Source: Amoebophrya sp. A120
Lineage: Eukaryota; Protista; Dinoflagellata
Direction: 5' to 3'
Assembly: GCA_905178155.1 (NCBI GenBank)
Contig: CAJINV010000004.1
Span: forward strand, 4,768,518 to 4,832,517
DNA length: 64,000 nt
Shown here: in pieces, positions 1 to 55,439 of the stretch
How the letters are laid out: each line of letters starts with the position of its first letter
Numbering within the stretch: position 1 is the stretch's first letter
Position numbers and translations under genes: made by a program
The notes under the pieces: model-generated
Databases searched by the model: none
Told to the model about the DNA's origin: nothing
The model's input: only the letters and a program-made list of their open reading frames with translations

Positions 1-186
1 CTGTGACGATTTTGGAAGATCTGCGTCACAAGTTTGTTACACATGACAGAGGAAACTTGTCATGCGTGCTTCCTAAGGGAAAACACAGCCAAAAATCCAA
101 TGTCTTGCATGTGTAGCAAGACAAACACATTTGCGTTCCGTTCTATGCATCACAAGTTCACAGCGACACAGTTTTTTCTTGTGATG
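1..186. mobile_element. Introner-like element, family E (partial, left end outside the window)
   Basis: Aligns with 54165-54376 (CCTAAGGGAAAACACAGC..AAAAATCCA.TGTCTTGCATGTGTAGCAAGA..ACAGTTTTTTCTTG). Confidence 0.8.
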
Positions 187-3100
187 AGTGGCGCTACCGT
201 TTCAATGTTGCGACCTGCCGGAAGAAAACCCGCGGAACATGGATACAGGTACCTATCTTGACGTGGAAGAGCCCAACTCGTTCGGTCATGTTCTTGGCTC
301 TTCCTGCATATAAAAATGTGATTGACTTACTTCACACTCACGCACTCTTCTTCCGCTTCCGCATCTAATTTTAAGTTTAGCTCTTTCGCCCCCTGGCCCT
401 GCAAGAAGATCATCATGATATTATTTTGCTTGCCATGTTGACTCGGACTCCTGAACCTGATGTCATTCTCATTTTCAACAGTCGAACGCGGCGGTATTCT
501 GTACATGCGGAACCTGCACCGGGAGGAGCACCTGAGCAGCCTGTTGAAGGTGGAACTTTCGGAGCAGCTTTCCTGCTCCGTCGGCGGCAATCCGGGGAAT
601 GACTTGGTGCTCTGCGGCCTACCGGCTTTTTTGTATCGCATCCGGTTTCTGGCGAAACAGGCTGCGGTAGAACTGGACCCACTGGCCACGGACTCGCACA
701 AGTACCTGCGCGTCAACGGCATGAAGCAAGCGGGAGTGGGACAAGAACCCATTCTGGTCTATGTTGGGGACCAAATTCAGCTGGCGGAAACGTATTTGCG
801 GCGCTTAAGCTCAATAAAAAAGAAATTCAATTTATGTAGCTCTCTCAGCTAATTATTTAGTGCAACAAAAGCTATGAATTGTGCATCTACTTCTTGTCTT
901 TGTTCCGGTCGATGTTATTTCGTTCAAAAATTGCGCACCTGGAGGTGATTTTTATCCACCTGACGAACTAATTAGTAATTCCTCGTTGCAGGAGTTACAA
1001 CGTATCAACAACATCAACATCTATCAAGTATCTGTCTAGGTACTTTTTCGAGTTTTATTTTGGGCAAGAGCGCGGGAAGGACGTGATATTACAGCCGGCC
1101 CACGCCGAAGATCCGGATAGCATCGGGGAGAAAATTGAGCTGCTGAACTTGATGCAAAGCAAGGAAACCTTCGAGCTGGCCCCGGGTGGTCGCGTGCGCG
1201 TCTTTCCGCACAGTCCGGGGGAACACAAGGCCAAATCGGGTGGAGGTCCACCCACCGTCGCGGGAGTCACGAAGAACACACTCGGCAGAAGCGAGTTCTT
1301 GGCAAAGTGAGATTTTTTATGGACGAATTCTACGATGCCGATCATACGTAAATTAAGTTTAAGAAGAAAAGATTGTATAATATTTGATTTTCCGTGTTGA
1401 CCTTGTATCAGTAGTGATTTTTTCTGCTCGCGTCGTGGCAGGACAAGGGCACTTGATAGTGTGAAATTGAATTTGAAAGTTTTCTGTAAAATACAGGTAC
1501 TACACAATCTGCGACGGGCTGTATTCCGATTCGAACGCGACGGTATCCAAAGTGATCGCCGACGAGACGCTCATTTCCTCAACGTACTCCCACGGAGGAG
1601 GTGTTCTTGCAACGTCCTCGCTCCACGGCGGACCGCCTCCGAAACACCGGCCCGGCGCAGCTCCGACCAGTACCTTCTTACCCACGTCCCGACTGACGAG
1701 TCCCAGTCCGCTATCCTGAGTAAAAACGTACCCACACCATAGTTAGTTGTCATGCAAATCTGCATGCTTAAAATGTTTGTCATGCGGAGCCCTATGAGAA
1801 GCATTTTCTAAGGGTGTTTTGAAATTTGTCATGCTCCAATCAGCATGAGAGACTAGGTCTGTAATGCTGCTGAACTAGCTCAAACAGCACTACACTACGC
1901 GTCCAAATTTGTCATGCGAAACAAGCAAAGTTGGCCGATTTGTCTAGCAGATTTTCCATCTTGACTCTGGTGTGGGGACGTTTTCACTCAGGATATCCGC
2001 ACCCCCAGCCACCGGTGAACTTCATTCAGTCGGAGCAGCTGTTATCCAGGAAAAAACACCCATCCACATCCAATTTGTCATGCAAAACATACATAAAGTT
2101 CTGTGCTTGTCATGCAGAAATTGGATGTGGATTGGATTGGTTTTTTTCTGGGGATAGCTGTTATCCCAGTCATCCACCTCGTTATCTGTCTCACGATCAA
2201 GGAATCCTCGCAAAGGCGCGAAGCGCGTCAGCCCGGCGGACGAACCGCCACTCAACGCCTTGCAGAGTCCCTTCCACACACACAACGCCGTTTTGGTACC
2301 GACGCTGTCGCCAGGACGGGAGAAATTGTTCCGAGCAACTTCTTCTACGTCGGTGCAGCCTGTTGCAATATTAAATGCGGGGGGCGGTGGGTCCTCGTCC
2401 TCGTCGAATTATGCAAATTCGTCTGGGAAGAGCGTGATCCAGACCGTTATTCATCCGCCGTCTGCGATGGTGGTACAACAACCGCAGCTGCATCAGAGGA
2501 TTCCGAGCCCCAGAGGCGGGGGAATCGATTTGGTGAACGGAGAAGTGTGTAGCTTCAGGGAACAAGGTGGAACCTCTGGGCAACAGAAACTGCTGCCCCA
2601 ATACAATCAAAACTTTCTCCACCATAATTCCACCACCAGCAGTGTCGCCAGTTCATCGACGTCGCGAGGAGCGCGACACCACCCGCCCCCGAAGCTGGCG
2701 CTGACGCAGCCGAATCTGACTTTGTCGTGCAGTCAGTCTGCAAAGCTGGATACCAGTGGCTTGCTGTCGGAGACCAATACCTCCGAAAATAACCCGCAAA
2801 ACCGCTCCGCCATCACGGACGGCGGGGCTGGGATCGCGTTCGGCAGCGCGGCGGCCACGGGGTTAGTAGTTGGTGCAGGTGGAAACAAGTTTGTGTTTGG
2901 TGGTCACAAGGCAGGTCTGTTAGCGGCCGCATCGGGAGGGAACAAGAAGCAAGCAGGATCATCCTCCTCGAAAGTTAAGTCGGCTTCCTGGTTCACGCCG
3001 AAATTCGGAGGCGGAGTGGCGGCGACAGGATCGTCTTCGTCTTCGTCTTGTTCAGCGGCAGGCGGATTGCCGCCCGAAGTTGTAATGAAAGCGGCCAAGA

Positions 3101-6100
3101 ATGCGGAAGGTACGTGAAGCTAGATATTAGGCAGTTTTTTTTTCGTCGTTTTTTTTTTGGCGGTGGGCTGCTAGTCAAGGATAGTGCCACCTGGAACTTA
3201 GATTTGTCACTTGGAGTTGTGGTAACCCTAAGGGAATCCATGTTGACGAGCACTATTCATCGATAAACGAGCGAACGAAATTTTCAGTAGGTCTGTAGAA
3301 AAATAAAATAAGAATAACCACCTGCTGCACTACTTCTTTTTTCGCGCTAGCCACAGAATAGGCCGGGGGCTTGCTCGTTCTGGTGTGCGAGCTTCCGTAC
3401 TTAATCTGTGGTAAAGTAAATTAGGCAACTACCTCGCTATGCGGACTCGGAATGGCATCTACTGCCAGAGTGCGCACACTGGCGTTGCACAGTACCAGTA
3501 GATCCTGTCATCAACAAATTACCTTCGCTGGTGTAGCGCCGGACACATTGGCTATTGTAGTAAAAGCACGTACTACTTCGGACTTGCTGAGGCAGCATTG
3601 CCATTGGTTGGCATCAGGAGACGCGTCCGTATGTCGACGCTTCATTCAACCTGAAACCACGCGCCTCTTGGCGTCTCAAGAAAATGAATGCGAAATATTG
3701 AGCTACGCCTAATGACACCAGGTACCAATGCGGAGGAGCGAGACGCAGATACGTCCGCACCCGCTCCCGACCCGCCGATCGACAACTCCTCGGCTAGGCC
3801 CAAGAGTTCCACCACACTAACAAAAAGCGGCTCCAGTCGGTCGCTGAAATCCAAACCCGATATTCCGAAGCCGTACCCGAAATGCAGCTTCGAGCAAGCC
3901 TACCAGATCATCAAGCAGAACTACCAGACCGCGATCGACGCGAACGCGATGACGAAACCAAGTCGTGGGGTCGTAACTGCCGGCACTGGAGGTGCAGCAT
4001 CTACTTCCTCTTCGTCCAGTGCCTTTACCAACAGCAACACGGGTGGTGGAAGAATGCCTCCCGCAGAGAAGCTCCTCAGAAACTTGAAGCGCGCGACGGC
4101 TGCAAAACCCATGGCCGCGAATAGTAAAGCCATGGGAGCTCGTCCTGCAGCTGCACCTGCAAGTAGAACCAGCGCTGGTGCATCAAGTTCGTTGCTACCA
4201 GGTGGAGGAGGTGGCAACTGCACCACAGCGATTGCATCAACTCGGCGGGTCACTGGGAAGGCGAGTAGCGTCCAGCCCGTCGTCTCGAATGCTGGGGGAG
4301 ATCGACGTGACCCGATCACCGGCGTTTCCATAGGGGCTATGAATCTGTCAGGATTGAAATCGTCAAAGTTGAAATGGTTTGTCATGCATAAAATGCAAGG
4401 CATGACTGAAGTGCCTGTCTTGCTGGGATGGCAAGTGAGGCAGATTGTGAGCCTATTTAGGGTTTGGGATAGAGCTGCTAAAGGAGCATGACAAAAGCAC
4501 TCTTGTGTGCCCAAACAGCATGACAAATTGGACTTCGGTGCTCCGAAAATTTGTAATGCGCCGCTTGAAAATTGGTCTTCCAACTGGTATCCATTTCATG
4601 CATGACAAATTATTTCAACTTTGCCGATTTCAAACCTGACGCTTCTATAGGGGCTGGCACAGCTGTAAATTCCACACTGAATCGGCGGTCGTTGTTGAAC
4701 AGCAAAGCAGCGGGCCACGCAGTTGCAAAGTCCAAAGCATTTGGAGGTCCTGCAAGTACTAGTCATGCTGTGCCTAACCGCGGGCGATCCACTTCGTCTT
4801 CAAGAAAAAGCTTGTCGAATAGAAGTGGTCGCCTTGGAGCGGCTGCTACTGGCGGAGGTCCTCGTAGCACTACACCAGGAGGACAGGAAGTACTAGAGGC
4901 TGCACATCACGACATGCGGGGCGAAGGGAAGATGAAAAAACTGCAGACGCAAGTCAGCAACAGAGGTCCACCACATGGAGACAACTTCGAGCTGTCCTCG
5001 CAAGAAGGTGGAATTGAAGCGAGTGGCAGCACCAGCACCAACGTCGTCTCGCACGTCAACTCGGGGGCAGGGGGGCGTATTCATGTGGAACAGCTTGCAA
5101 TGGGCAAGGACGTCGTCGGGGAGGTAAATGGAGGCACCATGGCCGATGTTGAGGAATCGCTAGTCAATAAAGATGCCACGACGAGGACAAGAAGGACCCC
5201 CAGTGCCAGTGGGAGGACCTATCGCCCCCAAATATCACAATTGCAACAAATACCAGCGAAAAACTCATTCTCCCTGCAGCTTAACCGTGCGGAAACGGTG
5301 CCGGTGCTTCCCAAACGTGCGTCCCTGGTCGCAAACTCGCTTCTACCGCAATTTGCGTTCGGCGCAACTGGCACGCTTGTTGATCCTACTACAGGCACAC
5401 CAGCTGCACGACCGACTGGTGGCGTTGCAGGAACGATGTCGACAAACGACGACGACCAACCAAGGCAGAGGGTGCCCGCGCCCGCGTTTCTGAAATACAC
5501 ACCGAGGCTGAATTACGTTGCGGGAAAGAAGGTAAAGGCAACAACGGCTGGCGCTCCAGATCCTGACAGTGGAATAAACGCACGGCCTCCGCAACAAGCG
5601 GTGCCCGCGCGTGCGAGTTTTTTCGCTAGCAGTACTTCTGCGTCGCACGACGAAAAATCCCCAGGCACAACGAAGAATCGTTTCTATTCTGGTCTCGTGC
5701 TTGGCCGCTTGCAGATGTTCAACGGAGCGTCTTCTGCGAGGCTACTGCGTGTCCCCTCGCAAAGTCCGCCCCCGCCCTTCACCGCTCTTTCGCTGGGACA
5801 CGTGCAGAGCATGAAGCGACTCGGAGGTGGGCCGGGAGGAGTTGCTGGTGATGGTAAAAAAGGAGGAGCGGGCTGTTCTGCTGCAGACAACGCTTGTAGT
5901 TTCTCCACAGGCGCAAGCAACTCGGTTACCAGCGACGTATTCCACCGCGTCAGTGCGCAGAAGGCCGCCGGGGGTCATCTCATGTCCTCCCGGAGTCTGT
6001 CGCCCCAGAGGCTCCTGCATGGTGGACAATTTGGTGGGCAAAAAGAGGTTGCAGCTCATCTTCCCCAAGTACAACTGGGTGCGAGAGCTCACGCAACGAT

Positions 6101-9100
6101 TTCTGTTCAAAAACAGCTGAAGAAAGACTTGTCTTCCGTTTTGGAAGAGCAGGAAGAATCCACACAGTATGACGAGAAAAAAGTGTTACAATTAGTTACA
6201 CATTTGTTGGGGTTTCTGCATCACAACTTTTCTCTGTGTGGCAGAAAAAACCGATAATGCGAAGATCATAAGGGAAAACGAGGCTCCCAAGCATTTCCTG
6301 CATGAGAGAGGTTGTCTGTGTTGCCGTTCGTGCAACACAATGTGTAACTGTAGCACTTTTTTCTTGCGATATGCAGTCGCGCCTAGGCAGTAAATCTCTG
6401 CTCTCCACCTCGAGTCGGTCGCGGTCGGTCGCGCCCCGAGCGGCAGCTCCGGTTTATTTGATAGGTAGTCATTCTGCTTCGAGCTATTCGAAGGTTCTTG
6501 TCACCTCGTCTGATGCCACCGCAGGAGTGCCGGTCGTCCAGGAGCCTGAAGACAGCAGGAGGGTTGTTAAGAGCTCTTCTACAGGAGGTGCAGCTCCTGC
6601 GGCGAAGAGGGCAACACAGAAATTGAAGAAACGCGCTTCTTCTACTTCCAGAGCTCCTGCTGCCAACCCGCAGTCCGCGCGAGCCGCAGTTTCATCGTCT
6701 GACGCACCTGCGGGGGAAAAGCACACAAATGCCTTTGCTCGTGAACAAGATCCAGAGGTTCTCACGTCTAAGCAGTTGTTTGAGCAGGTCGACGAATTTA
6801 TGCGGAGCGCCAGCCACCTGCACTCCTCGACCACCGAGCCCTTTTCTACGGCCAAGGCCGCCGCGGCCTCCATTCAGAGCTTGCAGTCCTCCAGCCACGC
6901 CCGGTCGCAGTCGGTGCCGCACCCCAACCTTTGCTTCCCGTCGCATTTTCTCGGCCGCCCGACGGAGGTGCACCGCTTCGAGCGCACTTTATCGCCGTTC
7001 CAACCGAGAAGTTGGTCGGTAGAGCCGCCGAGTGTCGGTGTGGCCGGCTTCGGGTCGGCCGTACGGGTGGTTCTGCAGGGCGATATTAATGCAGGTGGGG
7101 GACGAGATGGAGATGTTGTTACAACTTTTTTGCAGAACAACCTGAACCGAAACATAGCAATGAATCAGGAAGGGTTGCTGCAGCTACAGGGCATCAACAA
7201 GCAAGGCGCAATAGGCCGTGAATTTGAAGGAGAGAACCAGCAGCAAGACGCAGGAACAATTCATCTTGCTGGCGGTGAAGATTTTTCCGCAAGCACGAGT
7301 AACACAGGATCAGGACGAGCCAGCGCTGCCTTGAAAAAAGTGCCTCCGCTTGTTCCGCCGCTTCAGCAGCACCCCGGACTTCTTTTGCTGCCCTCCGCGG
7401 TTTGCAGCGCGCGAGCGGCGACTGCGAGTAATTCCGCGGCGCAACTCCTGAAGAAAACCCCGCGGGGGATGAACATTCACAGCTCATTTAACAATTCCTC
7501 GAAAGAGTCCTCGCGAAACGAAGCCAACATCATTTCGACGTCTTGTTCCGCGGCTGAAAATAGTAACCACGCCATGCTCGTCACTGATAAAAACGAAGCC
7601 TCTGCGTATTCATCGGTGGAGCAGGACTTCTCCTCTTGTTCTGCTCAGGTTCATCTCCACGGTGGCGGGCAAGATCAAAATGAGTCACAAAGCGTCAGGA
7701 CGCTATCGAGAAAAGAACAAGAATGGTCGGCCTCGGATGAATCCTCTTCGGCGACTACGTTCAACCTCGCACAGAGTTTCATCCTGCCCTCGACCTCCGG
7801 GACCGGTGCATCCGATAACTTCAGCTCGTTGCGACCGCAGCTCATGCCGGCGCGGATTGGCGTCGGAGCAAATGGGATTACCACGCCGACCATTCCCGCA
7901 AGAGCAGTAGGAATTGCTTCTACCACACAGCAAGCACATGGTGCTGCGAGTGACAAGGCCGGGCTGGTGCAGACGGGCGGACCGAGTTCATCTGGCAACT
8001 ACGTGCCTGATATCTTAGCTACCGCTGGGATCGATATCAAAAACCTCGGTGCATTTCCTGTGTCGACAAGAACTGCCATGACTACAGGCGGTGTCGTGAA
8101 CCACTCCGAGCAGAGAGTAGCAGGCGACGAATCCTTAGAGAAAAAGGCCGCTGAAGACGAGGAAGGCAAATGCGGTGCTGTCGATCATGAGCAGCAAATT
8201 GAGGGGGCAGAGCAAATTGAGGGGGCGAGCCACCAAGCGCAAGCCCCTCCCGACGTAGTCCTCGAAGAAGAGCACGACAATATCACCGTGAATAATGCCT
8301 CTACATACCGCACGGACACGCAGCCGACGAGTCGCAGGCACAGTCAGATGGACCTTGTAAACGCGCAGCTGCAAGGCGAAATGAGCCGCGTCCAGGACCT
8401 TGGCATGTTGAACAAAATGCAGGAAGAGCGACCTGGTGACCACGACCCTGCCGCGGCCAACTTTGCTGCAAAAGCGCCGACTAACATACCCGCATTCGGG
8501 ACCGGTGCTCTCTGGGGACCGCTGCCGGAACTAGCAGCCGTGAAAAACAAGCCCAAGACGCTTCTTCCGGAAAGCGCGCGCGCCGGTCTTTCTCCGGCAG
8601 CCAAAAGAGCAGGACCTGGTGCTTACAGTAATGTTCTGGCCGCGTCTCCGTCCCCGGACAGACGAGCGGTTTTTCAATTGCAAGCAGCGGGAGGGGCTGC
8701 CGCCGCGCAGATTGCACCTCCAGCACCTCCGCGAGGTGTTGAGTTCGTGAAAAAGACCAAAGGCAGCAGCATCAGCAGTTTCGCCGCGAAACTTACCCAA
8801 GACAAGCTCGGAACACTTCGGTCGGTTTCGGCCGAACGGGTGCTGGAGCAGCCGAATTTCAGTTTCGATTTGAACAAGAATTCGCTCTACACGCCACGCA
8901 TCGAGAACAGAACTGCAGGTCGTGGACCACCGCCGCGCTTTCTTCCAGGTGGAGAACAAATACTTCCCCAGGCCGCGATAATTGCAACGTCATCTGCGTC
9001 ACCTCAGAGGAATAAAATCGACCCGGCTGCTGGTGCAGTCCCGCGTCCCCGCTTCACACATTTTGTCTCTTCAAATTTGGTGTTGCAGCACATCCGCTCT

Positions 9101-12100
9101 GGTGGAAGTAAGAACACCAAAACAGGTGGAGCGACTGCCGCCATAAACCTCGGCCCGATGAACACGTCCAGTTCGTCCTCTTCTTCTTCTTCTTCCGACC
9201 AAAGTGTGAACACGGGGAAGCAGATATCACAGGAAAAAGTGTTAACGTTAACGGAATTTGTAATGCAGCAATGCATCACAAAGCGTGCCTAAATTTGTCA
9301 ATGTCATGCATAGCATGCACATTGGGCTACATTTGTGATGCATGACTGCAATCTGTGAAAACCGTTAACGTTAACACTTTTTCTTGTGATAGCAGACTGT
9401 CATTGACGAAAATGTCAACGTTCCGGTTGTGTTTGTGCCGCCAGCCTCTTATTCCCTGAAAATTAACCATCCCCATCCAATTTGTCATGCAAAACATGCA
9501 GCAAAAAGTGTGTTTGTCATGCAAAAAGTGGATGGGGATGGTTAATTTTCAGGGAATACTTCTTCGTCTGAGGGGAGTGTGTTCCACCGAGCTACTACCG
9601 GTATTAGACCGCAGACCGGCCTCATCGTCCCGACCACTACATCCACACGACCACCAGCTCCGGGCGCGAAAGCGGAGTGCGGCCACGAGGTGCCGGTGCA
9701 AGTTTTGGGTGCAGCTGCTGGTGGAGATCAACATCAGCAGCATATCACGCCGACGAGCGATCTCACGGTGGACATGCAGTTGCTGGAAAATGATTTTCAT
9801 TCTGAAGAACCCAGAGGAGGACCACACCAAGGTAAAGCGAGCGGTCATCTTGATCTTCCCGACGACGACGACGATTCCGACGAGATAGGAACCAAAGCGC
9901 GACGAGATTCCGGCCCCGGCGCGGTCTTGAACAGTCAGGTGATCGAGGATGACGACGAGGAGATGTTCAAAATCATTGACGTCATGAACGGGCGCAACAG
10001 ACTGCAGCCTCTACGCACCTCCGGATCATCATCTTCCGACAAAACCAAGAGCAGGCTCAGCAGCGAAAATAACCAACAGGCGGTCTCCGGGGCAGCTTCG
10101 AGCTCCTCCTCGGCATCAAGGCGAATCACTGAGCAAGATGCTGAAAATACAGAAGACGGACCATCGCATCAAGGTCTTCCGGCTGGGGGCGCCGACGGCG
10201 GCATCGAAATCGATCGTTCCGCAGAGCTGCAGGATATGGGCCGTGGGCGGTCGGCGCTCTTGCGCAGACTGGTCAACGAGCCGGCGCCGCATGGACGAAA
10301 CGCCGCGGCGGCTCTGAGCCCGCGAATGCAGCAGGAGGGGCCGTTGACCAATGCCGTGGCACAGTCGGGGAGCGGCGGTGTCGGATCTTCAATTGTGGCG
10401 GCGAACATCAACAACAACCCAACGCACCCCCAAGCTGGAGCTGTTACTACAGCCGCGTCGGGGTCATCTAACAGCAATCTAGGTCCGAGCTACCACCGGT
10501 TGAGCTCGATAACAGAGGAGCGATCGGGGAATACGAGCCGGGCGCAGTCTTCGGGCGTCAACAGTAAGGACGGATCGCCTGCGACGCAGCCCCGACAGCC
10601 GGTGTTGTTGAATAGAGCTGGTGGTGGGACGATGGGAGGTGCACCGGGCGGAGCAGTCGTCGTTCCGGGTCTTCAGCCTGCTCTATCAGCCCGGATGCAG
10701 TTGAAAATGCTGAACATTGGTTTGGACTACACAAACAACAAGAACGGCGTTTGGACTGGTGGTGCGCCGAGCGGGAATAGTATGCCGCGGGTTGGTGGGG
10801 CTGCGATCCATGCTTCAGCAGCAGTTGCGTCTTCATCATCGAGCCCTACAGGAGATACAGGAGCAGGGGGATCTACAGTCTATCCGTCTGCAAGCGGGGG
10901 AGAGAACACATACAAAATGCAACCACACCTGCGACCGGACAAAACTCAAGTGGTGAATATGCAGATCATGCAGCCCTCGCCCGTAGCGCCAACATCAGAG
11001 TCGCAAGCTACGCAAGAAGAGCTCCACGTTGATCCAGGTGCAGGGGCTGAAAGCATTGCAAACGCTGCAAACGGGATAAATAACCATGGCAGCGCAGCTT
11101 GCTCCCCAGCGGGGACCGTGGTGTCAAACGGGAATGGACAGCAACCCAGCCCGTTCTCAATCAGCACCCGAACGATCGACCTGTACCAGCAGGGCAGATT
11201 GCCGAGCAAGAACGCATCTGGGCCACGTGTGCTGAACAATAACGGTGCAGAGCCAGCGAGAGGCAGCGAAGACATCAATACGGGTACTGGTGAGAAGTCT
11301 GGAAATAAAGCACCAACATCAAACGGAGTAGTCGTCCCACAAGGTCAAGGTCCACCAGCACCAGGACCTGCACCCACCACAACAACCAACTTCGGTCATA
11401 TTCTCACGCGGGGCAACATTCGTCCCGCCGGTGGAATGTTGACCTCAGCACGGGGAACAAGTGGCAGCTCATCATCTTCTGGTGGTTTGATGAATAATGC
11501 TGGCGAAAGTAGTTCTTTACTGGCCCAGAACATCAATCGATTTCCTCCTCTATCCACAGAAAAAAACCCATCCACATCCATTTTTTGCATGACAGACGCG
11601 TGATCTTATACGTGTTTTGCATGACAAATTGAATGTGGCTGGGTTTTTTTCTGTGGATATCCTCTTTCTGTCTTCCATTCCAACACGAGCAGTCCGGTGG
11701 ACAGCTATCCAAGAAAAAAACTGTGTTAGTGTAACTTTCTTTGGCTGGCAGCATGACAGATTTGCTCTACATGAGAGAGAAAACCTGTCATGCGTGGCTT
11801 GCAAGGGAAAACACAGACACACATGGAAAGAGGACTTCGTGGTTGTCTGGCATGACAGGTGTAACTCTCTTGCATATTCTGCATTACAGAGTTACACTTT
11901 GCACAGTTTTTTTCTTGCATAACAGCGAAGTGGAATTCAAAGCAGGCAGCGCCGTGAGCAGCAACGTCTGGCAGTCCTCCGTGAATACAGAACTAGCTCT
12001 GAATCAAGCGAGCCGCCGGGCCGAGATCATGAAAACCATTTCCCGTGAGGCAACGATGATCAAAGAAAATGCGATGCGGGAGGAGGAGCAGCGCCTTGCA

Positions 12101-41700: not shown

Positions 41701-41867
41701 CAGCCACGTCCGCGGGTATGGGCGGCTACGGGAGCAGTGACGAGTTGCAGCAGCAGGTGCGGACCTTGCAGGTCGACAGTCTGAAGAAAGACGAAAAAAT
41801 CCGGGTGCTGGAATCGGAAAACGCGAGCTTGAAAACCAGAATACGCAAGCTGGCGTCAGTCACATGA
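38783..41867 (+). CDS. Ig-like + PH-like domain protein with C-terminal coiled coil (SCAB Ig-PH / AIR9 A9-repeat-like)
   Basis: KCTWKR..EIAGISTNMYQISADDIGCKIVVE..GPFQLDP..YMLHVTSDEIKV..SRQSRDLIALTIRCF. Several GT-AG introns and heptad-rich 3' exons (ORFs 40619, 41592). Confidence 0.6.
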
Positions 41868-42610
41868 TGTTCTTGACCGGGCGGGTTTCATGAAGATGGT
41901 TTTCTTCTGATTTAATAGCTCCTGGCTTTTGATCATATTCTGCTACGCCCTGCTTCCATGAGAAGATAGCGCTCATGCTCATCTGCCACAAGAAGATAGA
42001 TGATGACGCCGTGGCACCACGATGTTGTCTACAGATGCGGCAAGCGTGTAGCTGATTCTACCCACTGCCACTCAAACAACGCCTGCGTCTGGAAAGAATT
42101 TACAGCGTCCGGCTGCACAGGAAGCCCTTATTCCGTCTCTGATGTGACAGTGACAAAACAAACATCTATGTCGTTTAAACGTATGGTGTGGGCGATGTCG
42201 TTTTTCTTGTCTAATATAGCGAGCTGCGATGGGAAGAACGAAGAAGTAAGAGAAAAAGAGCGAATGGTTGGAGAGAGTTCTAGTACTTGAGACGAGACTC
42301 GTAACATCGCTGACTAGCACTCGTAGACCTCACGCAGGAACAATATGGTTACAACGGGTGCGCATTCTGTTTATCTTCTTCTTGCGCTCGACCAGTTGTA
42401 TGAATCGAATGTGGGACCGCCACGCACGGTAATCGAATCAAACCGCGTTGCCGCTCGGGAGTCGTGGATGTAGATCTACACGAGCACACGACTCATCGCA
42501 TCAAGCAAGGTATGTTAGACGAGGTGTGTTGAGCAACAAGCCTGTATGATTTAAGTACTCATTTTTCTCATACAACATCAAGAAGAAGATAGCAACAGAG
42601 ACAGAAGACG

Positions 42611-45147: not shown

Positions 45148-46182
45148 TAGGGCGGACGAGAAAAGCAAGGAAGTTGTAGCATGTCAGTAGAGCAGCTGGT
45201 GGAGGTCGTGTGCCAACAACAACGGCGACATCCAACAACAGGAGCTACAGCTATGAAATGGTTTGAAGTACGGAGCTGAAAATCAGAATGAGCCAGCAAC
45301 AACGTCGGACCAAGACGAACGACGCACACGACGCACTGTTGAAAATTTTCCAAGAAACAAAAAGCTATCACTTGTACAATATCACAGGGCAGAACCCAGC
45401 AGCACAGTTTCAACAGTGACAAAAAAAACAGACACGAGGGGACTGCAAACATGTACATGCATCGGAGTCGGTGCTGCTCTACTAGCTTTGCCATTTTCAA
45501 GTTAAGCGGAGTTCTGGCAACCTCAACTAGGTGAAGGCGCGCGCGCGTTGTCGCGTTACCGCGATGTCATCAATTTCTGGAGGTTCAGGCTCGCTCCTCC
45601 TCCTTCGCTCTTTCTTCTAAGTATTTTGTGCGAACACGTGGTCGTCGTGGTTTCTAGCACTATGCATGCCACAATGAGTGCAAGATCAAGCAGTGAGTCC
45701 GAGTCAAAGGTCAGTGTATTGAGTGCACCAGCAGAGGAGGTTACGTAGGCACTTTAGAGAGGGCTGTGGTTTGTTGCGGCACAAATGATGAATGAGAGAC
45801 GCAAAGGGCAGCAAACGAAGGCGGCAAAGAGGTCTCACAAAACACGTACGGGGAACAAACTTTTTTCAGCATAATTGTTTTGGGCGCTTCCACTGGCTTT
45901 TGCGCTTGCGGCCACCGCTGCACCTACGCCTACCACGGGAGGTGGACGAAATAATAGCTACTAGCAAGTCTATAGATCATATACACTTTTTTTCAGAGAG
46001 AGTATCTATTTTGTTCGTTTTTCGCCCTGTGAGCAATTGCAATCCACCCGCCTGCCTCGCTGCGACAAGGGAGGTGCTGGACGAGATTCTGATTCGCTTC
46101 GACACAACATCGACTACATTCATTTTTTTGTTTCATACTTTTTTCAAAAGCAGTATATTCTAGTTGTTAAACAGAGAAAGAC

Positions 46183-48661
46183 ATGCCAAACGCACTTCAA
46201 AGTCTCCGCAGCACCTTATCGGAACTCACCGCGCAGGCTCGGAGACGCTCCTCCTTGCTGAAATCGAAACAGAAACAGGACAAGGACAAACAAATAAACT
46301 CTACCACTACCTCACGACGCCCCAGTGCTGAATCCTTGGCTCAGGCCTCGTCGAATAAGGACCTGGATAAAAAGTCTGAGGTTGTTCCTTCCACCTTCCT
46401 CCAGGACTTCTACGAAACGGGCGACGCAGTTTTGGGCTCTGTGGACGAAGCAGCGTTGCAACAGAACATCATGGAGACCATCACCTGCGGCAGCTGTTTC
46501 ACGAAAAACCGGGTACCGGCCGGTACCGTGCACTTCAAATGCTTCCGCTGCGGGGCATTGGCGAAAGTGGAGCGCAATCCGAAAATTGTGGCGGACCGCA
46601 ACCAGGAAGCGGAGATGCGGAACCGGGAAGACGAGGAACTGATGCAGGCGATAATCGAGAGTGAAGTCTCACACGTATTTACCACACAATAATAATTCTA
46701 CATGCAAAAATCATAAAAATTTGCATTCGAATGATTTTTTTACCGCCTTGCTGCATAAACACATTCTTCACAGCCGTACCCTTGATCTCGAAAAATCCCA
46801 TTCGTCCCCGAAAGAAATGGAAGATGAAATAAAACGAGCAATCTATCACAACAGGGCCGCATGTTAGCCGGGAAAAACTCCGTCTCTCCGGACCAAGTCG
46901 AACAGGACAGGATAAGAAGCACCAGCACAAGCTCTTCTGGCCTTTTAGACTCAACGCCCCCCGCCAGGCCGCAGCCCGTGTCTGCGTCTGCTCTGTCGCA
47001 GAAGTTGTTCCAGCCTGAGGAACGGGGTAAAACTACGGCGGCGACTACGGGTCCTCGTGGGCTCTTTGACGACAAGAACATCTCTACCTCCCTGTTGACC
47101 CGCGACAAACAGGAGCAGCAGGAGCAGAGATCCACAGCCGGCGGTAGTAGTGGTGCCTACAACGCCCAGAATTATTCCCCCTCCCGACCTACCGCTGCAT
47201 CGCAATCTCAGGCAAGGGAGGCCCGGGGCCTCTTTCCATCGGCCACCACCAGTGCAACTGCAGCGTCGGCAGCTGGAACGACAAGGGGGACGCCAGACAG
47301 GCAGGATATGCATTGCAAAAGTATCGTACTAGTATAAATTGCATCACAAAAAATTTTGGCAAGAAGAAAAGAGGAATTTGTAATGCTGTCTCACCTTAGG
47401 AAGGAGATTTGTCGTGCATATTTGCAATTAGTACGACTACGATACTTTTGCACAGGATACCGGATACGACACACCAAAGTAGTTCTGCAACGAGAACGAA
47501 CGCGAACACAAAGCACATTATCCTGTACAAAAGTATCGCGCGACCCGTTCTCATCGTAATTACCGCATGACAAATGCCATTCCTGAGCAAAAGCTGCACG
47601 ACACGCTCCGTTACCGTTTTCCGTGTTGCAGCAAAAATGAAAGTCTGTCAACATGTAGCACCTAGTTGCAGATAGTAACAGGGCGAAATGTTGCGTAGCC
47701 CGTGGGAGTATAAGAATTAAGAACATAAGCCTAGCCGCACTGGCGGCAAGCCTCACGTGCACCATCAGAAGTGCAGTATTGGCCGTTCTTTGCGGTGTCT
47801 CACCATCAGAAGTGCGAGCTGCGAGGAGCGGGGCGCACCGCCTAAAGTTCTAAAAAGTTCCCAACCGCCCGATAGATAGATAGATAGATAGATAGATTCA
47901 CGATACTTTTGCAATGCATACGGATGAGCCCGTTACTTCGACCGGAGAATTTGGCCGACGACCGTGTGTACATCGAGGCTCTGGAACAGAAAATTAAAAC
48001 ATTGGAAGTGAACTCGAAATTTTTGGAAAAAGAACTCGCGCAGCAGGACAAGAATACCGAGGACGTATTTTTTTTTTTCGGAGCATGTGACTTCGATGTT
48101 GTTGTGCAGCATAATTTTTTATGAAAATGCATGCTACGACATCCAGTGACATTGTGAGTCGTGCTATGAGCTTGTGTGTGAAAAAGAGCGCGCTTATTCC
48201 ATGTCAAACTTCACCACAGGCCGTCGCCGAACGCGACGTGGCTACGAAAGAGCTGAGCGCGGCCGTTGCGGAGATTGAGAAGCTGCTGAAGCAGAACCAC
48301 GAGAAAGACATTGTGATCAAAAAACTGACGAAGCAATTGCAGCAAAACGAAACCGTTTCCGACGCGGAGATCTTGGTCACGCAATTGCAGGATCGAGTGG
48401 AGGAACTGGAGGCGCAGTATCCAGGAAAATAAAACACCCCTCCCCATCCAATTTGTCATGCAAAACATGCATATTATGCATGTTTTGCATGACAAATTGC
48501 ATGTTTTGCATGACAAATCCATTTTTTGCATGACAAACACTGCAGTTTATGCCATAAACTGCAGTGTTTGTCATGCAAAAAATGGATGGGGGTGGCGTAA
48601 GTGTTTTTTCCTGGATACGCAGCTGCAGAGCTTGGGCATCGACCCCGTGGACAAGGACTGA
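46183..48661 (+). CDS. Protein with C4 zinc finger (LSD1-like), UIM-like motif and coiled coil
   Basis: ITCGSCFTKNRVPAGTVHFKCFRCG and EDEELMQAIIE. GT-AG introns at 46661-46867 and ~48066-48219. Removal of three TIR inserts restores frame. Confidence 0.65.
47307..47459. mobile_element. Introner-like element, family C (153 bp), TSD CAGGA/CCGGA
   Basis: TIR TATGCATTGCAAAAGTATCGTA / TACGATACTTTTGCACAGGATA. Confidence 0.9.
47519..47920. mobile_element. Expanded introner-like element with family C ends (402 bp), TSD CACAT/CGGAT
   Basis: TATCCTGTACAAAAGTATCG / CGATACTTTTGCAATGCATA. Removing 407 bp restores frame into MSPLLRPENL. Confidence 0.78.
47871..47897. repeat. (GATA)n microsatellite inside the 402-bp element
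   Basis: GATA x6 + GAT. Confidence 0.9.
48418..48617. mobile_element. Introner-like element, family A with internal fold-back duplications (200 bp), TSD CGCAG
   Basis: TATCCAGGAAAA / TTTTCCTGGATA. Removing 205 bp joins ELEAQ|LQSLG. Two internal perfect palindromes. Confidence 0.92.
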
Positions 48662-49314
48662 CGAGGAAGTTGAACACAGACGATGTAAGGAAGCGACACA
48701 TCCTGGGCGTACTAGTCCCTGAAACCTAACGATGTATCCAGCTACTTCTGTAGAATTTCACCTCCCAGTAACTAAAACTACCAACCGCGGACCGAAAGCC
48801 AATAACTTTTTATCGATTCCATATATAATGTTGAAAAAGTTTCTTTTGAAAATCTTGCCATGATATTTGTCGTGGTCTACTTGTAACCATCACCCGACGC
48901 TATTCTTGTCGCAGATTTCCGAGTCTTCACATAACAGCTGGATTGTGCCATGTTGAAGAGCTGATCAATTTATCCTCATTCCCTTTCTGAACGAGGTTGG
49001 GCGTTGAGTTGTACTTATTCGCCTGCTCTTGTGGCAAGAACACCTCTTGTTCTTCACTGCGCGGTACTCAGTCGCGGCAAAAGACAGCAACATCAAAGAG
49101 CGAGCGATAGAGAAAAGGGCACGCAGCAGGCAGATGAAATGGGCTCGTCCCTGCTCCCTTGCAGTTCTTGTATCGGAGCAAAAAGGCCTAGACCTCTTAG
49201 CGCTAATATCGCTTGCTCTTCTAGTGACGAATCTGACGAGTAGAGGATTGAGTTCTACTGTTGCGCTGCCCAGCGAGGACTCGTGGTCCCCTACCACCGC
49301 CACCGTTCGCAACG

Positions 49315-52300
49315 ATGAGCGAGGACGCCGCAGTACCGCCGCCAGCAGCAGCTGCGGCAATCGCGGATGCGGATATGACTCCCCCACAACAAACCGAAGA
49401 CGAGCCGACCAAACCAAAGCAGTCGATCGACGAACAGATAGCCGCGCAGGTGCCCTTATCCTTTGCGAAAGTATTCTTTGTACAACTCGAAAACGGACGT
49501 CTATACCCTATCTGACATGACAAACTCGTCCGCTTTTGATCTACTTACTTGGTAAAAATTGTGATGCGAAGATTTCTAATAGTAGTATGAACAAGATCAT
49601 ACAACTTTTGCAATGCATAGCGCCTGCGGCCGGTGACCGAGATCGCGGCACTGCTCAACATTCCGCACGAGTTATGGAAGCGTCAGGATTGAAATCGTCA
49701 AAGTTGAAATCTTTTCTCATGCATAAACTCCAAGGCATCAAGTGCCTCTCTTGCAGGGACGGCAAGCGAGGCCCACTGTCAGCCTGTTTGGGGTCTGCGG
49801 TAGAGCTGCTACAGAAGCATCACACAAGGCGCCTTCTGTCCCGCAACAGCATGACAAACTGGATTTAGACGGTCCCGAAATTTGTCATGCACCGCTTGAA
49901 AAATGGGGCGGGGGTCCAACTGGTACCGATTTTATGCTTCACAAGTTTTTCAACTTTGTCGATTTCAAACCTGGCACTCCCATACGAGTTTGTCGATCCG
50001 TATGGAAAGTTCAAGGCGAAAATCGATGCGCAGAGGTACTACGCGAGTATTTGGGAAAAGGGGTCTCTGTCCTCCGCTTCGTCTACTTCTTCCCGATCAT
50101 CTATCCACAGTAACTAAACTTCCCGCACACGTACAAATGCCGTGTCTGCATGACAAAACTTGGCCCCGATCTTAGTTTAGCATGACAAGCATCACGACAC
50201 GCCAAAGAAATTGAAATCTGTGATGCATTTTGTACATGTGCGCGAAATTTGTATTGCATATCATCTTCACGCCTCGTACTCGTTACTGGTATGACCCCCA
50301 CGAAAGCCGGAGAGGGAAAAACCACGACCACGGTGGGGCTGACCGACGCCTTGCGGCTCCTCGGGAAAAAAAGCATCGCGTGTCTGCGGGAGCCGAGTCT
50401 AGGGCCGGTGTTTGGGATGAAAGGAGGGGCTGCGGGGGGAGGTTGGTCGCAGGTATGAAATTACTTATATTTTCTTGTGGTTGTGCTTGTGTCATCATGA
50501 GGCACGACAAAGGAAAACTTCTGTAGTAGTACTTTCCATGCAACACAAGTCTCGCTCCTGCTGTCCTTCACCTACTTCAACTTCCGCATCATAACATTCA
50601 AAACCACTCCCAGACAACATAATTTCAATGCACAACGGCCAGGTAGTCCCGATGGATGAAATAAACCTCCACTTCACGGGCGATTTCCACGCGATCACGA
50701 GCGCGCTATGAGGGTGCGCAACTTCTACTCCCACTCCCTTTCCTTTGCAGGGTACAGACGACGTCCTCGAAAACGATGTATTACTAGCGTCTGTGTGACA
50801 AATCTTCCACGCAAGACGAGTAGTGCTAGAAGATGAGGGCGTGTGTGATTGAGCTGTGCTTTTGCCTGACAAAAGAGAGGGGGCAGGGGTACGACGAGTT
50901 CTTCACTGTTATATGCACACAACCTGCTGTCTGCCATGGTGGACAACCACATCTACTGGAAAAAGCAGCCCGAGATCGACGTGCGCCGCATTATATCCCC
51001 TGCAAAAGTATCGTACTCGTACTAATCGCATCCATGCATTACATTTTTCTTTCTCAAGTTAAATCCGCATTACTTTTTTCTTTCTCATGCTGAGGAAATT
51101 TGTCATGCGATTTATTTTTATAGGATACTTCTAGTACGATGCTTTTGCATTTCATACATCACTTGGAAGCGCGTGCTCGACATGAACGACCGGGCACTGC
51201 GAAAATTGACGGTTGCACTCGGCGGTCCGGGGAACGGCTACCCGCGCGAGGACGGCTTCGACATCACCGTGGCGTCCGAGGTCATGGCGATTCTTTGCCT
51301 CGCGACCGATTTCCCCGATTTGGAGCGACGGCTGGGCAACATTGTCGTCGGCCACACGCGGAAACGAGACATGGTAACCGCCCGGGACTTGAAGGCCCAC
51401 GGTGCGATGGCGGCCTTGCTAAAGGACGCGTTTAAGCCGAATTTGGTCCAAACCCTCGGCGGCTCCCTATGGCGTTCTCAAACGTTACATTCTCAACTCG
51501 AACTCGAATTTGTATTGCATGAATTTGCAAGGACTTGTATTGCGAGGACAGCAAGAGTGAAGGTGGCAAGCTTGCTGCTTTTGCATCACAGATTTGGCAC
51601 AGATTCAGATGTTGGCGGGCCCTTCGGAGATTTGTCATGCGACGTAGCTTGATCATCTGGCGGTTTATGGTAGTTTCGCATGACAAATCCAGGCAACAGG
51701 AGTTGAGAGTGGACCAGTTGAGAGCCCCATACCCCCCTGCGTTGATCCACGGGGGCCCCTTCGCGAACATCGCGCACGGCTGCAACTCCGTGCAGGCGAC
51801 CAAACTCGGGTTGGAGCTTGGTGACATCGTCGTGACGGAAGCCGGATTTGGTGCCGACCTCGGGGCGGAAAAGTTCATTGACATCAAGTGCCGAGCCGCG
51901 GGGTTGATCCCCGACGTTGTGGCGATGGTGGTCTCCTGCCGGGCACTGAAAATGCACGGCGGGGTCGGTGAGAAGGAGCTGAAAACAGAAAACTTAGCGG
52001 CAATCAAAACTGGTTTGGCCAACGTGGAGCGGCACTGCGAAAACCTGGCGAAGTTCGGGCTGCCGATCGTCATTTCGGTGAACAAGTTCCCAACGGTATC
52101 CTGAGCAAAAACGTGGCCGTGGTCCCCGGTCCCCATGTCATTAGTCATATTAGTCTTGATGCACGACAGGATTTTATTTGCATTAGCTGCTCTTGCTCAC
52201 GTGTTTCTTATCGATAAAGCTGAAGCTCTGCATGAGAGCCTTGTTAGGCTCTTTTCTGCACTTGGGACGACGTGACTAGTTTTTGCACTGGATAAACGGA

Positions 52301-53040
52301 TACGGACGCGGAGTTGAGCCTCGCGTGTGAAACCTGTGCGACTTTTCCGAACGTTCAAGCGGCCTTGGTGGGGGACCACTGGGCGCACGGCGGGGCGGGC
52401 ATTCAGGGCGTGGCGGAAGCGGTTCTCAAGTGCGTGGAGGATAGTGGAACAGGCACAACAACTACGTTGAAAACCCTGTACCCATCGGACCTGCCGCTGG
52501 CACAGAAAATCGAGGCCATCGCGCAGAATATTTATCGGGCAAAGGGTGTCATTTTCGCCGATGAAGCCAGGACCGCGCTGAAGGGAATGCAGGAGAAGGG
52601 GTGAGCGCAGCCATATTTAGAGTAGATGGGTGTTCATCTGTTCATTTCATCGAATACACAAGCTGCATGTTGGACAATGATGAATCCTGATGTTGATTAG
52701 CTTGATCACGATCAGTAACAGTTGTATCTGCTTTCGCTCCTGCGAACTACACTTCATCGCACCGTTCTACCTTTTATACGAGTTCACGCACATCATCAAC
52801 CTCAGATTTGGCCATCTCCCCGTCTGTATCGCGAAAACCCAGTACAGCTTCAGTGACGACGCGAAGAAGGTAAATGCGGCAATAGACCACGAGCTGCACG
52901 TCTCCGAGGTCAGGCTGAACGCCGGGGCAGAGTTTGTCGTGGCGATCTGCGGCGCCATTATGACGATGCCCGGCTTACCGGAAACACCCGCGGCGGAAAA
53001 CATTGGGCTAGTGGATGGGCAAGTGCACGGGCTGTTCTAG
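49315..53040 (+). CDS. fhs: Formate--tetrahydrofolate ligase (FTHFS), monofunctional
   Basis: [147 protein letters not shown] introns 50453-50642 and 52601-52805, plus 7 TIR inserts. Confidence 0.95.
49457..49619. mobile_element. Degenerate family C-like element, also removable as GT-AG intron 49450-49620
   Basis: TATCCTTTGCGAAAGT / ACTTTTGCAATGCATA. Flanks GCCCT/GCGCC are poorly matched. Both the 168-bp and 171-bp removals keep frame. Confidence 0.6.
49673..49984. mobile_element. Introner-like element, family B (312 bp), TSD CGAGT
   Basis: Same length as, and alignable with, 4338-4649. Joins NIPHE|[11 protein letters not shown] in FTHFS. Confidence 0.93.
50102..50260. mobile_element. Introner-like element (159 bp), TSD TCATC
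   Basis: Imperfect TIR (CGCACACGTACAAATGC / GCATTTTGTACATGTGCG). Removing 164 bp restores frame. Confidence 0.85.
50707..50913. mobile_element. Diverged introner-like element (207 bp), TSD CGCGC/TGCAC
   Basis: TAT..ATA ends and a weak TIR. Removing 212 bp reconstitutes conserved HAITSA|HNLL. Confidence 0.8.
50994..51156. mobile_element. Introner-like element, family C (163 bp), TSD CATTA/CATCA
   Basis: TGCAAAAGTATCGTACT / AGTACGATGCTTTTGCA. Removal gives conserved IDVRRI|[11 protein letters not shown]. Confidence 0.92.
51468..51731. mobile_element. Introner-like element, family F (264 bp), TSD CTCCC/CCCCC
   Basis: Starts TATGGCGTTCTCAAACGTTACATT, as does 16610. Removal gives [10 protein letters not shown]|[10 protein letters not shown]. 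Confidence 0.92.
52097..52294. mobile_element. Introner-like element, family H-like (198 bp), TSD AACGG
   Basis: TATCCTGAGCAAAAAC / GTTTTTGCACTGGATA. Removal gives VNKFPT|DTDAEL. Confidence 0.9.
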
Positions 53041-53704
53041 CTGGCATTTCCAAAGTGGTGCGAGGCTGCGAGTCAAAAATGCAGACGATTTATGTGTATG
53101 AAGGAGAAAGTGGATTTAGAGTTTGTTGTCCATTGATGTGAGCTCCTCACTTTTTGCATTTCTGGACGAAACGAATACCCCACTGTGAGCAAGTCGACGC
53201 CTCCTGATGTCGATTGTCCGCGCGTCGTGTAAGATAGTGAGACTCGTCACGTCGTCGAAGTAAAACAAATGCACATCAGTAGTTGTAGTTGAAGACACAT
53301 GAAATTAAAAACGAAACAAACGCTCCCAGCTGGGCCTGTTTGACATCAGCGCCGACGATAACCACTAACGTTCGGCGTACATCTCCTGGTAGTACTCTGA
53401 CTCTCTTCGGCCGTGGCATTTCGGATTCAGGAGTACCAGAGAAAAAACACTCGTCACGCTGGTGGAGTGAATCGAGCGAGCTACTAAAAAACTGCAATGA
53501 AGAAGACTACGGGGAGATGTTGTAGCCCTGTGCTTGTTTCTGGAGGAACCCCCGGAAGATGAAATAGGCCGCTTCTTAGCACAGAAAGACCACCGCGGTC
53601 ACAACGTCAAGAATGCACTTGCTCGTCAAATCCCCCACAGCAACTGGATCGAAAACTAGTAATGTAGTACTACAGTGAGTCCACAGACCTATCTTTGTCT
53701 TTCT

Positions 53705-55439
53705 ATGCTTCACCACAATGCCAAGCCCTCTTCTCTCTCCCCGCCGCGGCGCAACGTCATCCGTTGCCGGTTGTGTGGCGGTGAGTTTCTCCGGGACGGA
53801 TTTCCTTTTCACGCGAAGAAATGCGCGAAGAAGTTCTTTGTCGACCTGGATCCGGGCGATCCAACAGCCTGGAAAAAGTGCGCCGTTCTAGTAAACAACA
53901 GCAGCACTGAGACTTTGCCGATCCATCGGCATAGAGGAAGAAATTCTTCTAATGGAGAAGCAGCTGCGTTTTCGCCAAGTGCGGGTACTAGAGATGGTTG
54001 TAGCTTCTCGCCGGAGGTGGAAGAGCATGTTGGTGAAGCAGGGGGTGATGGTGCGCAGCTGCCAGACCTCCTCCAGCACCGCCCAGATCTTCATGCCGGC
54101 GGTGGACTACAAATTGACTGTCAGGGAGCTGCAACAGCAACTGGTGAATCAAATACCGGTATTGTATCATACGAAAAAAGTGTTTCACTGTAAGGATTTT
54201 GCAAGTTGTGCATCACAAGTTCGTTCTACATCACAGGGAAAATTTGCCATGCGAGATTCCTAAGGGAAAACACAGCTAAAAATCCACTGTCTTGCATGTG
54301 TAGCAAGAGAAACATTTCTCGGATACATTTTCATCTGCATTACAAGTTTACAGTGAAACAGTTTTTTCTTGCGATATATTGAACCTCTGGAGCAGTGCAG
54401 CATTTGCGGTCGGTCCTTCTTCGCGTCACGATTGAAAAAACACGAGGATATTTGTCGCAGGAATCAAGAAAGGCGGCTGCATCACCAGAACGAGTCATTG
54501 CCTCTGGAATCTTCAGGCAGACGGACGGGAGCAGGACTGCACTTCAATAAAAGTAGAAATTCTGCTGGTACTGCACGACCTTCAGCGCAACAGATAAAAC
54601 ATTCGCAAAGTGCGGGAAGCCTGCGGGAAAATGTTGACTCACGGCCACCCGGTGGTGGTGCTCCTGGAAAGGATATACATCAACCGCGCCCAAATAGAGA
54701 CCAGGACCGCACGCACACGACCCATACTTCGAACAACCAGGACCATCGGGAAGATGCTGGGGGCGGCGCTGGGGTACTAGAACAAGCCCAACTTCTGTCA
54801 CTACAAGAAGAACGGAACACGCACCAGGCCGAACCACGGCAAAAAGACCACTTGGAACAACGCCAGCACTTGTCTGCTTCGAGCTCGTCCACCAGGTCTC
54901 TGCATCTGGACTACTACAACCAACTCGCGGAACCACATCAAGTACAACTGCCTACTGCCCGTAGAACCGCTTTCAGCACCACCAAATTTGGCGCGTTCAG
55001 TCCAACTGCGAAGACAAGTACTAAAAGCCTCAATTTCGTCACACGGAGCAGCGCATCCCTGCACGCCAAAGTGGACTTCGATGGACGAGCGAGACCAAGA
55101 CGCAGTATTTTGTCCTCAGGCACCAAGGCGGCGCAGCAGCACGCGGCGGAATGGGGGAGAAACGCAGCGGCAATGCAGGAGGGACTGGGGGGGCGAGGTG
55201 GAGGAAATTATGGGTCCTCGTCCATGCTCGGGGGCCCAGGCGGAGGAGGAGGTACTATGAAGACGGAGAAAAGTAGCTGGTGGAGCGGGAATCCTGTACA
55301 GACGTGTTACAAGACCAATTCCTTTCTCACTCAAGGTGCTAGCTTTTTCGCGGAATCCGCTGCAACGGCGCGTTTGAACCAGACGAGTCGTGGCACGATA
55401 GCACTGCCGGCACGAGTGCCAAATATGAACAAGTCGTGA
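53705..55439 (+). CDS. C2HC-type zinc-finger protein (zf-C2HC_2; ZC2HC1/ZNF474-like)
   Basis: CRLCGGEF..FHAKKC and CSICGRSFFASRLKKHEDIC are joined in frame after removing 217 bp (element 54165-54376 + TSD). Start uncertain. Confidence 0.7.
54165..54376. mobile_element. Introner-like element, family E (212 bp), TSD TATTG
   Basis: TATCATACGAAAAAAGTGTTTCACTGTAA / TTACAGTGAAACAGTTTTTTCTTGCGATA. Frame restored. Confidence 0.93.

Follow-up and report, generated by a model that had tools for sequence, protein, structure and literature searches.

Removal of TAT…ATA introner elements from transcripts of Amoebophrya sp. A120, and a possible fixed position of the cut

The closest described relatives of the elements considered here come from the same organism. 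According to the text of Farhat et al. (2021; PMC7789003), the dinoflagellate Amoebophrya sp. A120 contains 29,850 repeated introns in 1,954 families, validated genome-wide by RNA sequencing (RNA-seq). These introner elements have a mean length of about 240 nt, no internal transposase and intron borders that are variable or unknown; their inverted repeat starts with TAT, followed by seven less conserved bases and at least three A, and direct repeats of 3–5 nt stand at the exon border, a 5-bp example being given in their Fig. S19. The present analysis concerns the elements in a stretch of 64,000 nt of the A120 genome (contig CAJINV010000004.1, positions 4,768,518 to 4,832,517; hereafter the window), three proteins of which are 100% identical to A120 annotations in exon queries. 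They are introner elements of this already described set: organism, TAT and A-run ends, 5-bp repeat, grouping in families and removal from RNA without GT-AG ends all agree with the published text, and no difference in kind is apparent. A preliminary description of the window, made from the sequence alone, had underrated this prior art. What is new relative to the text of Farhat et al. is a hypothesis of a splice code with a fixed cut, an interior motif shared between families, and the removal of one family in either orientation; a fixed register, a shared interior motif and an orientation test are absent from that text, although its figures S19–S25 might show the register or the motif. A literature search, outside whose scope most subscription journals lie, found no later paper on the splicing mechanism of A120.

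Related systems are known from other lineages. Introners of Micromonas, Aureococcus and Polarella likewise resemble miniature inverted-repeat transposable elements (MITEs) and are removed with one copy of the target duplication, but they are described as supplying or co-opting GT/GC and AG ends (PMC11282704), which is possible for only 4 of 27 elements in the window. Other Amoebophrya strains are reported to use mostly GT-AG introns (PMC12005148, PMC11453091). The nonconventional introns of euglenids, as presented in two accounts (PMC12501133, PMC11282704), also have ends like terminal inverted repeats (TIRs) and target-site duplications, no GT-AG, a paired triplet with an asymmetric overhang and a likely MITE origin. 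The euglenids are an unrelated lineage, and their CDG/CH'G triplet is not found in the window elements, which carry TAT/ATA at their termini; in euglenids CAG/CTG stand at +4 to +6, with a 3' spacer of 5–6 nt and a purine after the cut (PMC12501133), whereas in A120 TAT/ATA stand likely at +2 to +4, with a 4-nt spacer. Among transposons, IS3EU/GingerRoot elements share TA..TA termini and inverted repeats with the window elements and encode an integrase-like DDE enzyme; their target duplication is usually 6 bp (PMC10045372), whereas that of the A120-type elements studied here is strictly 5 bp. Finally, Gozashti 2025 (PMC12130899) places A120 introners in diverse classes of transposable elements, including a TIR family with homology to an integrase region.

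A script that searches for pairs of inverted ends located 27 complete TAT…ATA elements of 104–402 bp in the window, all with 5-bp flanking direct repeats, and a 28th copy that is cut by the window start, ends at 186 and has ATG in place of ATA. The repeat is perfect in 17 of the 27 and has one or two mismatches in the other 10, among them the element at 18448, which starts with TAC. When TIR pairs were chosen without the repeat as a criterion, 16 of 23 had an identical 5-bp flanking repeat and 20 of 23 one with at most one mismatch; identical repeats of 4, 6, 7 or 8 bp were found at none of the same 23 pairs, and 30 Markov shuffles gave four TIR pairs in total, none with a repeat. The 54 element ends begin with T (54), A (54) and T (53), continue with seven variable bases, and have A at positions 11–14 in 42–49 of the 54. 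Interior matches between window elements mark them as repeated in families, and interior BLAST together with TIR likeness gives eight groups and one unplaced copy. The preliminary description, which had counted about 28 inserts in at least eight families with one common architecture, is borne out. Being short and non-coding, with TIRs, a target duplication of constant length and many copies, the elements have the traits of MITEs. All 27 complete elements lie within coding regions, which make up about 65% of the remaining window on a rough gene map. Summed depth of a DNA sequencing run (X1) reaches 2 × 10^5 over elements against about 25 elsewhere, a ratio that does not express copy number. The elements are listed below with their groups (A to H) and the two copies of the flanking repeat.

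1–186: element truncated at the window start; group D, with ATG at its right end; 87% identity over 99 nt to the interior of 54165
1712–1995: element, group H; TCCGC/TCCGC; removal opens the frame
2043–2156: element, group A; GCTGT/GCTGT
4338–4649: element, group B; GGGGC/GGGGC
6168–6371: element, group D by TIR only; CACAG/TGCAG
9225–9391: element, group C; GCAGA/GCAGA
9450–9558: element, group A; CCTCT/CTTCT
11551–11659: element, group A in opposite orientation (minus-strand interior match to 2043, 9450 and 13003); TCCTC/TCCTC
11706–11921: element, group D; ACAGC/ACAGC
13003–13111: element, group A; GAGGA/GAGGA
16610–16853: element, group E; TCCAG/TCCAG
18448–18708: element, group G, starts TAC; CGCAT/CTCAT; cut after base 2 or later (annotated protein)
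20322–20474: element, group F; GGCGA/GGCGA; GC-AG reachable
27383–27555: element, group C; GGCGA/GGCGA; GC-AG reachable
44067–44226: element, degenerate group F-like TIR; GCTGT/GCTCC; only a cut after base 4 fits the annotated protein
44618–44766: element, group F; GGTGA/GGTGA; GT-AG reachable
44802–45053: element, group G; CCAGG/CCAGG; GT-AG at cut 4
47307–47459: element, group F; CAGGA/CCGGA; an RNA piece reaching to 47303 allows a cut after base 2 or any later base
47519–47920: element, group F-like TIR, longer interior; CACAT/CGGAT; cut after base 3 or later (annotated protein)
48418–48617: element, related to group A; CGCAG/CGCAG
49457–49619: element, group F-like TIR; GCCCT/GCGCC; an RNA piece reaching to 49454 allows a cut after base 3 or after base 4
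49673–49984: element, group B; CGAGT/CGAGT
50102–50260: element, weak TIR, unplaced; TCATC/TCATC
50707–50913: element, group E-like left end; CGCGC/TGCAC
50994–51156: element, group F, orientation opposite to 44618; CATTA/CATCA
51468–51731: element, group E; CTCCC/CCCCC
52097–52294: element, group H by TIR; AACGG/AACGG
54165–54376: element, group D; TATTG/TATTG; one RNA contig joins 54159 directly to 54377

The longest element, at 47519–47920, has a foreign-looking interior that ends in a GATA microsatellite and may carry a nested repeat; part of this interior is matched by reads of a raw-read run (X9) and by loose ends of contigs from runs X3 and X5.

Coverage by four of the 11 sequencing runs on list was examined over 38501–55500. 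X3 and X5 are assembled contigs with no RNA label on record, whose RNA type is a guess, and X1 is a DNA run; from X9 41 reads were placed, all partial and at 90–95% identity, which do not cover the locus. The contigs of X3 and X5 that lack the elements also lack ordinary GT-AG introns, e.g. that at 46675–46854, and are thus taken to represent complementary DNA (cDNA). In one X3 record, 54159 is followed directly by 54377, so that 217 nt are missing, the length of the element plus one repeat copy. Two further records lack 722, 925 and 1896 nt between their pieces. All four lengths are exactly as predicted once the ordinary introns in the intervals are counted in. In this way exact removal was observed for all 14 elements covered by spliced records. 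Among the annotated proteins, P0001 with 604 aa and P0004 with 457 aa equal the predicted spliced products with 0 differences, and P0002 tiles across its three elements; the underlying gene models are transcript-based and may share their source with the RNA-type runs. The X1 contigs, on the other hand, span the elements at 44067, 49457, 50102, 50707 and 52097 whole and reach 24–53 nt into seven others, holding them at the depth of their flanks with junctions crossed unbroken. Spliced RNA-type contigs without elements, together with DNA contigs that contain them, support removal of the elements from RNA and their retention in DNA.

Two alternatives that had been raised in the preliminary description bear on this point. 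The first is that the elements are lost from the DNA itself in expressed nuclei or life stages, in the manner of internal eliminated sequences (IESs). The inverted ends starting with TA and the precise removal with one repeat copy resemble ciliate IESs, and the Logan contigs used here drop rare variants and include the single DNA run X1, possibly the window's own source. For this reason a rare or stage-specific excision is to be called only unlikely. As an explanation of the elements in general, IES-like excision is very improbable: the absence from expressed-genome DNA that defines ciliate-type IESs is not seen in this run, where the elements are kept, the element-free contigs are cDNA, and Farhat et al. 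report that introns were validated by RNA-seq against genomic DNA (PMC7789003). The second is that the inserts are retained, that nearby GT-AG sites are used, or that the genes are pseudogenes. It could draw on the guessed RNA nature of X3 and X5 and on the 13 of 27 elements that have no RNA cover, but the exact lengths at all 14 covered elements contradict it there, the spliced products of 604, 457, 609 and 1146 aa are intact, and it is scarcely credible.

The reading frames of the host genes tell the same story, as the preliminary description had held when it stated that removal of an element plus one repeat copy restores the frame. Two of these genes are as follows.

15287–20567, plus strand: WD40 gene, likely AHI1/jouberin, protein P0002, 1146 aa
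49315–53040, plus strand: FTHFS gene, 609 aa after removal of seven elements and two GT-AG introns, only 156 aa in the frame that retains the elements

In the segment 3722–12281, no stop codon is met when the elements and one repeat are removed, against 59 when the elements are kept, and removal opens the frame for the ten complete elements without RNA or annotation cover. The exception is the element at 27383, where the frame is open also when both repeats are kept, so that the frame test does not discriminate. Of the gene names proposed beforehand, FTHFS stands, with a Pfam match (PF01268) on the last two exons; the stretches interrupted in it are, we assume, conserved motifs. AHI1 is likely, as its protein lies near jouberin clusters by features (0.94), with WD40 matches below the cut-off. 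The three elements of this gene split stretches that are continuous in the ortholog P0003.

Sliding the cut within the direct repeat brings GT-AG ends within reach at just two elements (44618 and 44802) and GC-AG ends at just two more (20322 and 27383), the same four that the preliminary description had named; the remaining 23 of 27 cannot reach GT/GC-AG and thus lack the donor and acceptor of U2-type introns. The element at 50994 belongs to the family of that at 44618 in the inverse orientation, and neither is left in the spliced records. A larger sample was obtained from a second assembly, i.e. loci of a metagenome collection that match the TIR pattern (at least 143, of which 142 lie on JACKZZ01 contigs); all statements on this assembly, here and below, refer to the matches listed. 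It contains 361 elements, 271 of which could be given an orientation with a coding model that had learned from window sequence, and has the same families as the window at 72–95% best identity. Among TIR pairs up to 500 bp, a perfect 5-bp repeat flanks 238 of 465 and a 6-bp repeat none, many of the remaining pairs being sub-pairs within TIRs. No second-assembly locus matched the unique DNA of the window, and the TIR pattern had no matches in viral contigs. The sole match outside JACKZZ01 (L121) was rejected as a chance match in a bacterial-looking gene.

In the 271 oriented elements, GT-AG is reachable in 14 in sense and 10 in antisense, and GT/GC-AG in 19 in sense against 11 in the antisense control. 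No enrichment of GT or AG was found at any cut in the sense-oriented repeats, interior orientation is balanced (102:94, with 75 undecided), and the two ends have the same composition. A drift of right-hand repeats towards CAG was considered as well and ruled out on the listed cases. Removal in either orientation, balanced orientation and the lack of a GT/AG excess place the removal signal in the symmetric element ends, with no selection for GT or AG. This bears on the earlier proposal that excision reads the paired geometry of TIR and target duplication: the part concerning symmetric ends and the disuse of GT/AG fits the data, whereas recognition of the repeat pair itself is probably not needed for removal. 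Repeats of the second assembly differ at 6.3% of bases, so that their identity does not look maintained, and elements with two repeat mismatches are still removed exactly. The terminal TAT is 92–98% conserved at unselected ends of two families, similar to the 94% of the repeats, a level that does not by itself point to extra selection on TAT.

The elements also share an interior motif. The 5,449 nt of element sequence hold 68 copies of TGT[ACG]ATGC or its complement, against four in the other 58,551 nt, an enrichment of about 180-fold; it is present in 25 of the 27 elements, and two of the four outside copies lie in the truncated element at the window start. In the second assembly it was found in 315 of 321 high-scoring elements, most frequently 33–35 or 41–44 nt from an end, and the distance between copies peaks at 31 and at 35 nt. 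In ordinary introns no full copy was found apart from one at 40488. The occurrence of both orientations and the near-helical spacing, of about three turns, suggest a putative DNA-binding site of a common mobiliser.

Where the repeats are imperfect, they reveal which copy reaches the mRNA, and hence where the cut lies; RNA pieces were placed leftmost for this purpose. RNA pieces limit the cut at 49457 (base 3 or 4) and 47307 (base 2 or later), and proteins limit it at 44067 (P0001; base 4), 47519 (P0004; base 3 or later) and 18448 (P0002; base 2 or later). The one position that suits all five sites is a cut after repeat base 4. It gives an intron of the form N-TAT…ATA-N4 and puts the TAT of the element at intron positions +2 to +4, where ordinary introns of the window have GTAT. 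Ordinary donors read GTAT in 9 of 17 and GTA in 15 of 17 cases (20 are listed, of which three with mis-set coordinates were dropped). These ordinary introns, e.g. at 43808–43953, 46675–46854, 48065–48219, 50453–50642 and 52601–52805, are mostly 146–272 nt long, mostly start with GTA and end with CAG. The nine commonest non-canonical classes of A120 in Table S4 of Farhat et al. all have T as second base (PMC7789003), which fits an N-TAT donor but could reflect aligner preference.

From these data the following sequence of events may be proposed, in which we place slightly better than even confidence. A DDE transposase would bind the repeated TGT[ACG]ATGC sites and insert the elements by staggered cuts of 5 bp; the elements likely spread as non-autonomous DNA transposons. 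In the transcript the two element ends would pair, and a divergent spliceosome might read N-TAT as a relaxed form of the GTAT donor of the genome; the paired ATA end would then set the 3' cut, by a constant distance, in place of CAG. The element leaves with one repeat copy, and the cuts likely take with it the single base that precedes the left TAT and the four bases that follow the right ATA. Pairing is predicted for most elements: the pairing probability of terminal TAT and ATA reaches 0.5 in 19 of 27, and the element at 54165 folds better than its shuffles (z -4.4).

A number of observations count against this proposal, several of which concern the cut. Five independent random cuts would be compatible with one another 10.5% of the time, and the agreement is therefore suggestive only. 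The fixed cut is derived from five sites, of which only two were read from RNA pieces, and the sole site that gives exactly base 4 (44067) comes from a transcript-based gene model, maybe from the same transcriptome as the RNA contigs. Joints within the FTHFS gene are known as summed lengths, in which compensating errors could hide. In imperfect repeats of the second assembly, the upstream copy has A/T more often and the downstream copy G/C at positions 1–3 (28:12, p=0.017), possibly through a mutation bias in the intronic copy; this asymmetry flips at positions 4–5 (12:15; Fisher p=0.045), i.e. between positions 3 and 4, so that a cut after base 3 fits as well. The imperfect repeats at 50707 and 50994 of the window do differ between cuts after base 3 and base 4, but synonymously, and can therefore be read only in RNA. 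None of 46 framed imperfect repeats in that assembly had a stop codon able to pin the cut. The acceptors in Table S4 are mostly AN, as would also be expected from aligner preference or unresolved strand, and in the account of Farhat et al. the position of the cut varies with respect to the hairpin (PMC7789003). The latter statement, as in their figure legend, would correspond to removal from RNA that is guided by hairpin and repeat, with a cut that slides within the 5-bp repeat. A range of cuts is allowed at four of the five informative sites, and the mismatch asymmetry does not single out base 4. This alternative appears rather improbable, since one value is common to all five sites, any aligner reports variable borders when repeats are perfect, and imperfect repeats would yield mixed transcripts.

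Other objections concern the machinery. Terminal pairing is not predicted for 8 of 27 elements, and that at 44067 folds no better than shuffles (z -0.45). U1 small nuclear RNA (snRNA) was not detected in A120 by Farhat et al., who also found no transposase there (PMC7789003). The missing U1 would suit a separate, hairpin-guided cut-and-join reaction that releases circles and not lariats, as euglenid introns are reported to do (PMC11282704). Such a reaction would agree with the absence of an acceptor signal at any cut position and with symmetric ends that work both ways, and the Euglena code N3CDG…CH'GN5-6 is alike in shape, with a paired triplet and an overhang that is short on the 5' side and longer on the 3' side (PMC12501133). 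It is nevertheless held to be unlikely: A120 is reported to have 83 of 89 spliceosomal proteins together with U2, U4, U5 and U6 (PMC7789003), the TAT of the element at cut 4 coincides with the GTAT consensus of ordinary donors, and the spliceosome of Fritillaria indicates that adaptation to non-canonical ends is possible (PMC11282704). Returning to the spliceosomal reading, a stronger form of it is entertained tentatively, at somewhat less than even confidence. A120 would then possess a second fixed splicing code, N-TAT…ATA-N4, independent of exon and repeat and convergent with the Euglena code, possibly read by a U1-less spliceosome, and all families would be driven by one enzyme.

The last objection is that such an enzyme was not found in the sample. 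The preliminary description had advised a search for long TAT..ATA elements that encode a transposase; among seven long candidates in 394 kb of second-assembly loci, four of them inspected by sequence or open reading frames, no transposase-coding element was seen. A 4.2-kb TAT..ATA candidate with a perfect repeat (L042) proved to consist of two short elements on either side of host exons, whose ends pair by chance. Candidates of 815 bp (L024) and 753 bp (L071) are lengthened copies which, like an element of 1.36 kb (L072), gave no sign of a transposase gene when read by eye. The last of these, a TAT..ATA element with a 5-bp repeat at 1669–3024 of its locus, is itself interrupted, apparently at a TA site, by an insert of about 1.2 kb that has long inverted ends of its own; the insert is presumably akin to MITEs of the Tc1/mariner type.

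Further features of the window were recorded in passing. At 57135–57207 two arms of about 36 bp form a perfect palindrome around a 1-nt loop. An in-frame TGA within it (57175–57177) separates two long open frames of a DUF4470 gene, and behind it, at 57218–57276, about 28 bp are repeated in tandem almost perfectly. The structure could reflect an inverted duplication, an unusual intron or an error of assembly. A single X3 contig is unbroken over 48618–49454 and connects the gene at 46183, by its 3' end, with FTHFS across the spacer; overlapping untranslated regions or read-through are possible, and the contig does not prove one transcript. The gene at 38501–42469 has depth 0 in X3 and 13–31 in X5, neighbouring genes being covered in both runs, and its expression is possibly stage-specific. 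Two GC-rich intergenic stretches (21000–22600 and 36700–38200) contain several CCAAT/ATTGG words, and no similarity was found between them or to loci of the second assembly.

The papers cited leave two questions, how A120 disposes of tens of thousands of introns that lack GT-AG ends and what mobilises them. A fixed cut register would be directly testable with existing RNA-seq, as imperfect repeats read out the cut, and it predicts the base pairs that a divergent U6 or a replacement of U1 should make. The shared interior motif offers a handle for finding the mobilising protein and the autonomous element. If a second splicing code of this kind exists, any transposon with TAT ends would be a perfect intron, in either orientation and at any site.

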